Assembly (NCBI RefSeq): GCF_964213995.1
Contig: NW_027590479.1
Location: forward strand, 124,001 to 188,000
Direction of reading: 5' to 3'
DNA from: Mustelus asterias
Lineage: Eukaryota
DNA length: 64,000 nucleotides
The position numbers and the translations under genes are program-made. Under the pieces are notes generated by a model. The model saw only the letters and a list, made by a program, of their open reading frames with translations, was not told the DNA's origin and did not search any database. Positions 38,955-49,672 of this stretch are shown here, in pieces (within the stretch, counting starts at the first letter, position 1; each line of letters starts with the position of its first letter).

Positions 38955-39612
38955 ATGCTGCTACCCAGTTACCGCATTGCTAGTTTATATTGGTAAACGA
39001 TTTCCCGAGGCTCTTCCTCTCCTTCTGTTTTAGCTTTCTGTACAACAGTCGCTTAATTTAAAGGATTGCAATAGTAAATATATCCATATCTTCACACATG
39101 CGATTCAAGGAGATCACTGGCCAAGAAATAATGGTGTTCTTCTGTTTTTGTCATCTGGTTATATTGTGGCTGTTGTTCGGTATGTAACACCATCACTTCT
39201 TATCTGCTGGCAGTATTGTGATGTTAATGGACTCGCCGCTCAGTGTTACGTTAAAGCTTTCCTTATACTTTATACAGGGCTGGTTCAAGCAGATTCTCTG
39301 TCGCAACCTCAGACTGAACTGTATATTACTGAAGGAGATAGAATGAAAATGGCCTGCAGCTACACGACAAGTCACAGGTATCCCTTTCTTCATTGGTACA
39401 GACAGCAGAGTGACAAGGCTCCGCATTTTATTTTGTACCGAGATAGAAGCAACAGAAGAGACGCAGGTTTTGCCACGGGAAAATTCGAGGCCGACCAGAC
39501 GAATGCAGAAAATAATTTTCCTTTAACGATTACTCGAGCAGAAATCCAAGATATCGCTGTCTATTTCTGCGTGTAGAGAGACACAGAGGTCATTTATCGC
39601 TGTACAAAACCT
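38955..39612 (+). pseudogene. TCR V pseudogene (frameshifted leader 38955-38992, V exon 39278-39581, short-spacer RSS)
   Basis: ADSLSQPQ...MACSY...WYRQ...DIAVYFCV*; cacagag-15 bp-acaaaacct. Confidence 0.85.
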
Positions 39613-40741: not shown

Positions 40742-41223
40742 TTGGGAATCCTTCTTGTTTTCACCGTGTGTGCCTATTTACCCCATGAGTACCGATCAAA
40801 CTAACCCACATTGTGTGGATTGAACATAAAGCTGCCCCAGTCCATCTCAATTACAAACACTGTCTGGGGTTTTAGCCCCGTTGTGCGGTTCGGCTCTGAT
40901 GGTCCATTAAACTCTCTGTGTTGAATTTCCAGGATGTTTCAGTCAGTCAGTGACTCAAAGCCCGGCAGCGGTGACCAGGAAGGAGTGTCAGTCTCTCACC
41001 ATCACCTGTGTTTTCAATGGTGTTTATGATTTAGAAAATGGCCATTTCTTCAGACAAACCGAGACTGGGACAGAGCGGGAGCGGATCTCCAGCGGAGGGA
41101 GGTTTGTTGTGTCGGTGAATGAAGCAGAAAAGACATTTTCGCTGGAAATTCGGGATATGAGAATTGAAGACACTGCCACCTATTATTGTAAAGCTCAGCA
41201 CTGGTACTACACACATGGGACAC
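40742..41223 (+). pseudogene. NAR-TCR V, copy 1 (leader 40742-40784 defective; V exon 40933-41223 open)
   Basis: QSVTQSPAAVTRKECQSLTITC...RISSGGRFVVSVN..KTFSLEIRDMRIEDTATYYCKA: IgNAR-like V lacking CDR2, with an extra FR1 Cys; start is TTG and donor is ATGAGT. Confidence 0.85.
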
Positions 41224-41251
41224 CACAGTGGAAAAGAGGAGAACAAATACT
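41224..41251 (+). other. 12-RSS of NAR-TCR V1
   Basis: cacagtg-12 bp-acaaatact. Confidence 0.85.
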
Positions 41252-41582
41252 TAAGTATTTCTGAACAAGCGAAGCAATAATTTCCAGGACACGGACCACA
41301 GCTTGTCGGGTTGTTGTTATTATCGTTGCAACATGGTTTAATTTCGTTGTAATTTCCTCCTTTCAGTTATCTTTCTTTAACTTTTTTATTCCATTTCTAC
41401 GAAGCGTCCATCTCCGCTCCGTTCCTGGGCCGTTTTGCCAAGAGTTCAGAGTGTCCCAAGGAACAGTTTGTTCCAATGGGAATTATAAAACTATCATACT
41501 TCATTATTGACCTATAACCCCTGAATAATTGATAAACGCTGACTATTCGGTAATTTTTTCCCCATCAGTTTGAGGTGTCTGT

Positions 41583-41674
41583 CATTCTTGTACTGGGCTG
41601 ACTGAGAGCGCTGACACCGTGGGGAGAATGGAGATTTACAGATGGGTCTGGGACGGTGGTGACTGTCTCAGCTG
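41583..41674 (+). CDS. NAR-TCR J segment, copy 1 (23-RSS 41583-41621, J 41622-41674)
   Basis: cattcttgt-23-caccgtg, then GEWRFTDGSGTVVTVSA and g|gtaag donor. Confidence 0.85.
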
Positions 41675-43710: not shown

Positions 43711-44025
43711 GTTCTGCAGAATCCAGTTTATCTGTGTCACAGAATCCGTCTCTCCAAACCTGTGCTGCCGACGACACCATTACTTTAAACTGTGAATATC
43801 CAGGATTTTGTCAACACACACTCTACTGGTACCGTCACTCTCCAGGACAGACCCCAAAATACCTGCTTAAGAGACACACATCAGGCGGGGCGAGCAAAGA
43901 AAACGCTGCCGGGCAGAGAATTTCTGCTTCTGTCGACCCTGTCGAAAAAATCAGCTGGTTAAAGATCTCCAAGGTGCAACTGAGCGACTCCGCTGTGTAT
44001 TACTGTGCACTGAGCGGGCGCACAG
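43711..44025 (+). CDS. Leaderless supporting TCR-delta V of NAR-TCR, copy 1 (intact)
   Basis: Phase-1 acceptor; SVSQNP...LNCEYPGFCQHTLYWYR...DSAVYYCALS; extra CDR1 Cys; no leader exon seen between J and V. Confidence 0.85.
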
Positions 44026-44320
44026 CACAGTGATGCAGAACAGGGAGAGAACCGTACAGAAACTTGAACATGGTGAGGATTCCAGACACAGTGATACAGA
44101 ACACGGAGAGAGCTGTACAAATACCTGGACCTGGTGAGGTTTTCAGACACAGTGATACAGAACACGGAGAGCGATGTGCAATAACTTGGACAAGGTGATG
44201 ATTACAGACACAGTGATACAGAACACGGAGAGGGCTGTACAGAAACCTGAACAAGGTGAGGATTACAGACACAGTGATACAGAAGACGGGGAGAGTTATA
44301 CAGAAGCCTGAACATGGTGA
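44026..44320 (+). repeat. Tandem array of five 23-RSS (61-bp unit)
   Basis: cacagtg at 44026, 44087, 44148, 44209 and 44270, each followed by a 23-bp spacer and a nonamer-like sequence. Confidence 0.95.
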
Positions 44321-44340
44321 GCTCACAAGAATCTGAAATG

Positions 44341-44631
44341 CATGTTCAGGTTTTTGTACAGCTGTCTCCTTGTTCTGTATCACTATGTCTGTAATCCTCA
44401 CCATGTCCAAGTTATTGCACAGCTCTCTCCGTGTTCTGTGTCACTGTGTCTGTAACGCTCATCATGTCCAGGTTTTTGTACAACTCTCTCCGTGTTCTGT
44501 ATCACTATGTCTGTAGTCCTCACCATGTCCAATTTATTTCACAGCTCTCTCCGTGTTCTGTATCACTGTGTCTGTAATCCTCACCACGTTCAGGTTTTTG
44601 TACAGCTCTCTCCGTGTTCTGTGTCACTATG
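44341..44631 (-). repeat. Inverted tandem array of five 23-RSS (61-bp unit)
   Basis: Heptamers (plus-strand cactatg or cactgtg) at 44381, 44442, 44503, 44564 and 44625, each 23 bp from a nonamer. Confidence 0.95.
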
Positions 44632-44936
44632 CTGTGCGCCAACTCAGTTCACAGTAATAAACAGCGGAGTCGCTCAGTTAAAGTTTGGAGATCTTTAACC
44701 GGCTGATTTTGACGGAAGAATCGATAGAAGCAGAAATCCTCCCCCCGACCCTGTTTGATTTATTCTCCTCTCCAGAAATGTGTGTCTGAAGCAGGTATTT
44801 CTGAGCCTGTCCTGGGGTCTGAGGGTACCAGTGTACTGTGTACTGACAGGGACCTGAATATTCGCAGCTTCAAATAACCGGTCACCGGCAGCAGAGGTTT
44901 GTCGAAGGGAACTTGGTGACACAGCTGAGCTGGAAT
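44632..44936 (-). pseudogene. Supporting TCR-delta V, copy 2 (pseudogene)
   Basis: CEYSGPCQYTVHWY...KISKL*LSDSAVYYCELS; FR1 frameshift and a TAA stop; CDR1 Cys retained. Confidence 0.85.
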
Positions 44937-48750: not shown

Positions 48751-48841
48751 CGGCTGTGACAGTCACCACCGTCCCAGACCCATCTGCAATCTCCATTCTC
48801 CCCACAGTGTCAGCGCTCTCAGTCAGCCCAGCACAAGAATG
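48751..48841 (-). CDS. NAR-TCR J segment, copy 2 (J 48751-48802, 23-RSS 48803-48841)
   Basis: GRMEIADGSGTVVTVTA and g|gtaag donor; consensus heptamer with 23-bp spacer. Confidence 0.85.
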
Positions 48842-49176
48842 ACTGACACCTCAAACTGCCGAGCAGCCATTACCGAACAATCAGTGTTTCTCGATTATTC
48901 AGGGGATTTGAATCAATAATGAACATTGGTTGTTTAAAAACGAAACATCATTGGACAAAATTTTTCCTTCTGACTCTCTGAGCTCCTGGTAAAATTTCCC
49001 AGGAACAGGAGCAGAGATGCAAGATTCTTATTAACAGCGAAAAGCCTTGAAGAATTATAGCTGATGGTGGAAATTACAATGAAATTAAACTAGATTGAAC
49101 TGGGAATAACATCAACCCGACAAGTCAAGTTACCGAACATGGGAATTGCTGGGAATTACAGTTTTGATTGTCCTGA

Positions 49177-49672
49177 GGTTTTTGTCGAACTCTCTCCCAA
49201 TGCGGTGTCCTGTGTGAGTAGTACCAGTGCTGAACTTTACAGTAATAACTGGCACTGTCTTCAACTCTCACGTCAGGAATTTCCAGTGAAAATGTCTTTT
49301 CTGCTTTATTCACCAGTACAATAAATCTCCCTCCGCTGGAGATCCGCTCCTGCTCCGTCCCGGTCTGGATTTGTCTGAAAAAAATGACCATTTTCTAAAT
49401 CATAAACTCCATAGAAAACACAGGTGATGGTAAGAGACTGACACTCCTTCCTGGTCAACGCTGCCAGGCTCTGTGTCACTGACTGATTGAAAGATCCTGG
49501 AAATTAAACACAGAGTTTAATGGACCAAACAAAGGGGCTAAAATCCTAGACAGTGTCTGTAATTGAGATGGACTGGGGCAGCTTTATATTCAATCCACGC
49601 AATGTGGGTGAGTTTGATCGGTACTCATCAGGGTAAACAGGCACACAGGGTGAAAACAAGAAGGATTCCCAT
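49177..49672 (-). pseudogene. NAR-TCR V, copy 2 (12-RSS 49177-49204, V 49205-49496, leader about 49630-49672)
   Basis: MGILLVFTLCACLP leader with damaged donor; +1 frameshift in a T run; YYCKVQHWYYSHRT; cgcattg-12-acaaaaacc. Confidence 0.85.

Follow-up and report, generated by a model that had tools for sequence, protein, structure and literature searches.

A likely germline V-D fusion in a family of shark NAR-TCR cassettes

Known joined receptor genes and the NAR-TCR

The NAR-TCR of cartilaginous fish, which Criscitiello reportedly described in 2006, is said to be a doubly rearranging TCR-delta. Published accounts describe it as two independent V-D-J rearrangements (PMC1845163, PMC12227049, PMC5931798). 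The listed features are a Cys in the a-b loop, the lack of the WYR Trp, and a downstream V-delta with a Cys in CDR1 (PMC1845163).

VD-J genes of shark IgH have been attributed to RAG activity in germ cells (PMC5192425, PMC4279169, PMC2193156), and germline joining has been called peculiar to cartilaginous-fish Ig genes (PMC5192425). The VD-J clusters of sharks and skates share with the joined cassettes described below a fused VD, a D 3′ recombination signal sequence (RSS) facing J, split clusters alongside, and a mixture of intact and broken copies; they differ in that the joined cassette here sits in a TCR locus. Within the literature examined, the only pre-joined TCR genes so far are those of marsupial TCR-mu and one newt TRD gene. 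In the marsupial V-mu-j it is the supporting domain that is completely joined, and retrotransposition is the most likely cause (PMC7615758); the shark cassette retains its introns and signals, and only half of the joining has taken place, in the distal, presumed antigen-binding domain. The TRD V-J gene of the newt Pleurodeles is likewise a pre-joined TCR-delta and is reported to be expressed, but it is a single complete V-J gene, leaderless, in a D-less locus, and not of NAR type (PMC12698447). No joined NAR-TCR was reported in the literature searched; the primary NAR-TCR papers lie outside it, so novelty is provisional. The text of one supplementary file of PMC3964593 mentions neither NAR-TCR nor RSS; its figures may bear on the RSS layout.

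The cassette analyzed here lies in a stretch of 64,000 nt (hereafter the window, meaning the whole stretch). Like the NAR-TCR, it has an IgNAR-like V that carries the a-b loop Cys, lacks the WYR Trp, and is preceded by a leader exon (disabled in this copy), as well as a J and a supporting V-delta with a CDR1 Cys; unlike the NAR-TCR, its first-domain V-D step appears to be germline-fixed in one large subfamily. It is a variant rather than a standard NAR-TCR, because no free RSS-flanked D lies between V and J. Very probably, the cassette belongs to the NAR-TCR (double-V TCR-delta) type, and its V and D are fused in the inherited DNA; the fusion was likely made by RAG, once, in a germ cell, and was followed by duplication. 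Intact members would need one 12/23 join to J, and the copy in the window is likely unexpressed.

Layout of the cassette in the window

All features are on the forward strand unless stated. The best PDB matches of the V were VNAR domains (E = 1e-18), and its closest named protein, from Mustelus asterias, was 97% identical. KECQ (the a-b loop Cys) and HFFRQ (no Trp of WYRK) were both found in protein P0001. An IgNAR cluster was ruled out: there is one D remnant rather than three Ds, and the next Ig exon past J is a TCR-type V. Three RSS-flanked D-like pieces were observed behind a distant NAR-like V at L059:1400-2580 and L060:1350-2530, on one large contig; these are possibly IgNAR clusters.

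The leader exon (40742–40784) is disabled. Its start codon is TTG at 40742 and the following intron opens with AT at 40785, not GT, a defect absent from the original prediction; paralogues L003–L010 and L012 have ATG and GT. The leader splice from 40784 to 40933 is used in RNA-type contigs of another organism. The NAR-TCR V exon (40933–41211) has an open frame and carries the a-b loop Cys in KECQ, lacks the WYR Trp, and extends as germline V through HWYY (junction boundary ± 2 nt). Its Cys codon is at 41187–41189 and is followed by 34 nt that encode KAQHWYYTHGT plus 1 nt, as originally read. The last 12 nt before the signal (41212–41223) would be the fixed V-D junction, 2–4 nt of uncertain source, followed by 8 nt that are D-like and putatively the retained 3′ part of D.

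The 12-RSS, the putative former 3′ signal of D (41224–41251), consists of the heptamer CACAGTG (41224–41230), a 12-bp spacer, and the nonamer ACAAATACT (41243–41251), again as predicted. It was the sole 12-RSS in the window with an exact heptamer and no more than two nonamer mismatches (mean of 30 shuffles, 0.0). The other window Vs with a detected RSS, conventional and supporting, have 23-bp spacers and end 14–22 nt from the start of the Cys codon, which agrees with the short ends described for them. Upstream, at 39280–39610, there is a conventional TCR V-like exon with a stop after the Cys and a degenerate signal; it is likely a pseudogene.

The segment at 41252–41582 would be the former D-J interval; in three split cassettes, the corresponding D-J interval is 63–67% identical to it. 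A relaxed scan of both strands (at most two heptamer, four nonamer, and five total mismatches; spacers of 11–13 and 22–24) found no RSS in it. A D hidden between V and J was thus rejected, and the absence of an RSS-flanked D, claimed by the original prediction, was borne out. The J was found where it had been placed, downstream and with a 23-RSS (41583–41621, reverse strand), whose heptamer CACGGTG has one mismatch; most paralogues have CACAGTG. The NAR-type J segment itself (41622–41674) reads GEWRFTDGSGTVVTVSA and includes the motif DGSGTVVTV and a phase-1 GT donor.

The supporting TCR-delta V exon (43720–44025) starts approximately 2 kb past J. It is open, in phase with the J donor, has a Cys in CDR1 (FCQH) and a 23-RSS, and is followed by five tandem 61-bp units, each with one 23-RSS (44026–44330). 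In gene model P0010, J is spliced to a supporting V of this type. A second array of 61-bp units, also with a 23-RSS per unit, lies on the reverse strand at 44341–44645, the two supporting Vs being head-to-head. Arrays of the 61-bp type were also observed behind the supporting Vs of split cassettes L033 and L052.

An inverted paralogue of the joined cassette (48751–49672, reverse strand) had been described as having the same layout. The 12-bp spacing is indeed kept; the heptamer is dead (CGCATTG), the V is frameshifted, and the leader donor is AT, so that this copy is a pseudogene.

Split relatives and the copies of the junction

Relatives were collected by a DNA search (at least 41 matches; best 40 of 73 candidates scored) and a protein search (at least 78 matches; best 150 of 740 scored), and 40 stretches around the protein-search matches were examined. 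The genome contains split cassettes with the order V, RSS with a 22-bp spacer, approximately 400 bp, 12-RSS, D of 13–19 nt, 12-RSS, approximately 380 bp, 23-RSS (22 in some), and J. The V signal had a spacer of 22 bp, not 23, wherever it was detected in split NAR cassettes (L031–L056, L065).

The segment 41224–41621 aligned end to end with split D-J intervals (scores, 150 to 186; best of 20 shuffles, −43 to −70). Against split V-D intervals it scored −56 to −113, and the D-J interval was preferred in 10 of 10 cassettes tested. The alignment is with D-J and not with V-D; therefore, the 12-RSS corresponds to the 3′ signal of D, and the V-D interval was removed. The original prediction had left a choice between a germline-joined V-D and a D-less NAR-TCR family. 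The interval homology, in all 10 tested, together with the presence of split cassettes in the genome and the copy number and divergence given below, favors the former; the latter is not supported.

Split Vs end with the same aromatic motif (CKADYWYY in L036–L038, CKAQHWYG in L033, CKAQYWYW in L031 and L039; also bamboo-shark P0008). Because split Vs already end in WYY, WYW, or HWYG, HWYY is V-encoded, and the aromatic stretch was not made by the join. A D origin of HWYY, proposed from the D-like look of ggtactac, was thus rejected. The V end had also been called unusually long. The 34 nt stand, but split NAR Vs already extend 25–27 nt from the start of the Cys codon at all 22 of the 22 loci listed. 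What remains for junction and D is at most 12 nt, and the longest word shared with the Ds of seven split cassettes was 3–7 nt (best, 7 nt with L047). Hence the split V-22RSS / 12-D-12 / 23-J version that was to be looked for exists, but its D matches the extension over no more than 7 nt. No exact donor D was found among the sampled cassettes, and 2–4 nt are unexplained.

Some relatives departed from the split layout. L034, L040, and L041 have an open NAR V with a 22-RSS and KEYQ (no a-b loop Cys), and no J within approximately 8.7 kb (L034 and L040 scanned whole). Broken NAR-like cassettes at L061:1730-2170 and L062:1220-1660 have a 22/23-RSS as the D 3′ signal, and the J of L061 has a 12-RSS, the reverse of the usual layout here.

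Exact matches to the junction pattern were found at 35 places, spread over 21 contigs (control, 0). Some of these places are probably redundant haplotypes, so the figure does not give the haploid copy number. Subfamily A, to which the window belongs, and subfamily B have the junction in common at 70–72% interval identity. Among the 204 proteins compared, the joined end was carried only by P0001, P0010, and P0002. The V of P0002 is 77–80% identical to the best Vs scored here, and its sequence YWYYTHGTPQW runs across this same junction and into the RSS, which suggests that the join predates a species split. Contigs of run X9, perhaps not independent of the assembly source, span the junction region and the interval. 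A search of the representative library returned no further joined relative. Gene models of other sharks splice cryptically around D and J and are uninformative on germline joins.

The join appears to be old and inherited, because one junction is found at 35 places, the non-coding DNA of the subfamilies is approximately 30% diverged, and P0002 is only 77–80% like any V. In an unrooted V-exon tree, support for one origin was weak (76/80; 26 vs. 23 rows).

Use, origin, and meaning of the joined family

Fifteen of the 39 joined places were intact (nine in subfamily A and six in subfamily B), with ATG, GT, AG, an open V, and a CAC heptamer; the other 24, including the copy in the window, were broken. 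Intactness was judged on the leader, the splice sites, the V frame, and the V-side heptamer, with J signals outside the test. Within subfamily A, the leader was intact in 9 of 12 places, and L004–L006 had a weaker J nonamer. The supporting Vs that follow the A and B copies were open, one of them without its first Cys. The window copy is likely not expressible, because its leader is broken, and is likely a pseudogene. No RNA record carrying its sequence was listed. RNA-type contigs X1–X6, from other organisms, stop at or before 41207 and are uninformative on joined genes.

The V dN/dS between subfamilies A and B was 0.26–0.43 (four non-independent pairs). Comparisons with the pseudogene subfamily C were mixed (B-C, 1.07–1.42; A-C, 0.40–0.53). 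A pattern search of the assembly for the product of joined VD with J (gap of 14–44 nt) gave no match. RAG products were seen in 0 of 15 intact joined cassettes and in 6 of 21 split cassettes (one-sided P = 0.03); for the comparable D-J step the counts were 0 of 15 and 3 of 21 (P = 0.19). Complete VDJ joins were absent from the assembly in both the joined and the split set.

It is possible, if somewhat doubtful, that the family arose by a germline join but is a passive relic of segmental duplication, unused by T cells; this concerns function only, and its origin overlaps with that in the reading preferred here. In subfamilies A and B, whose non-coding DNA is approximately 30% diverged, the leader, the splice sites, the reading frame, and both RSSs have nevertheless been kept, the supporting Vs are open, and dN/dS is below 0.45. 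Under the preferred reading of a germline V-D join, the 12-RSS of joined cassettes would still be used somatically, and their J would splice to the supporting V-delta. A semi-invariant CDR3 made in one joining step, as originally suggested, can fairly be predicted for those paralogues that are intact and likely fails for the window copy with its broken leader. The untrimmed distance from Cys to the J motif is 56 nt, and it is 57 nt in a V-J contig of another organism. We infer that the CDR3 of an intact member would be of ordinary length and would vary at one junction, where the usual scheme has two; this junction would lie between the aromatic start from V and a Trp/Phe-bearing J.

In RNA-type contigs of other organisms (X2 and X4, with loose ends at window positions 40930–40932, and X3 record 1), the end of a NAR-type J abuts the beginning of a NAR V exon with nothing between. 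Gene models P0009 and P0011 give the chain NARV-J-NARV-J-supporting V. These J-to-NAR-V contigs and models may stem from double-NAR chains arranged in tandem or from circular RNA produced by back-splicing.

As to how V and D came together, RAG would have joined V to D once, long ago, in a germ cell. Such a join would keep the V end and trim the 5′ side of D, leaving the 12-RSS of D facing J. Duplication would then have spread the fused cassette into a family, often with an inverted pseudogene copy. Intact members would make a single 12/23 join to J before splicing to the supporting V-delta.

Fusion by an ordinary deletion from the V heptamer to D, without RAG and with CA or CACA of the heptamer left behind, is improbable. 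With a V end at 25 nt the junction does open with CACA, and with one at 27 nt it opens with CA, both of which match the start of a heptamer. However, 27-nt V ends in ACA occur (L034, L040, L041, and P0008), so that only 2 nt would be unexplained, and both ends fall within a few nucleotides of coding ends in an interval of approximately 430 bp. In addition, an independent V-D join, L049, which was found at one place only, consists of an intact V, 1 nt, and a D that is trimmed on its 5′ side and stops at the same RSS. Over 8.4 kb, L049 and split L047 diverge by approximately 0.3%. The position of both break points at coding ends, and the same form in L049, point to RAG as the probable agent.

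The reverse order of events, in which a primordial D-less cassette (V-12RSS/23RSS-J) later received an RSS-flanked insertion, by which the end of V was severed and became a D, is highly improbable. It would be consistent with the unrooted tree of D-J intervals, in which a branch with 100/100 support separates the 22 distinct joined rows from the 15 split rows plus L049; the joined group is sister to all sampled split cassettes, at 63–68% identity compared with 80–89% among split ones. This tree has no outgroup and comprises rows with a matched J motif, thus omitting, e.g., L003–L006, L030, and L042–L044. On the other side, V ends that read straight into the heptamer (T-HSD) occur in gene models of bamboo, epaulette, and basking sharks; joined and split Vs are 82–91% identical in DNA, the same as between subfamilies; the joined end is confined, among the 204 proteins compared, to the three named above; and V-23RSS is treated as ancestral (PMC12227049, legend of Figure 2).

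Because the assembly contains singleton RAG products (L049; L033, L052, and L056; L037 and L051), the possibility that the assembly had picked up a somatic V-D intermediate from a T cell had to be excluded, and it is effectively refuted by a single junction at 35 places in diverged subfamilies with flanks approximately 30% apart, in run X9, and in the distant protein P0002, which indicate that the junction is inherited and not somatic.

The singleton products comprise D-J joins (L033, L052, and L056), the V-D join of L049, and inversions with signal joints (L037 and L051); most of those in NAR-TCR cassettes look somatic. In L032 and L055, a supporting V is joined to a D-like piece. For L056, no twin above 82% turned up among the candidates scored (the best 40 of 58), and its D-J join may have arisen separately in the germline.

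A broader proposal can be put forward only tentatively, and we would not yet back it over its negation. The ancient germ-cell RAG join may have founded a selected and amplified NAR-TCR lineage with a half-built antigen-binding domain, serving shark gamma-delta T cells as a semi-invariant, early or innate-like receptor completed in one step, and further germline joins (such as L056) would mark NAR-TCR cassettes as a recurring target of RAG in germ cells. Split and joined cassettes occur in one genome; therefore, an early-life advantage and NAR-TCR binding are directly testable by repertoire sequencing. The fused V-D, present in dozens of copies, would spare a T cell one of the two joins. A half-joined NAR-TCR domain would mean that germ-cell recombination reached a TCR locus and that its product was kept and multiplied.
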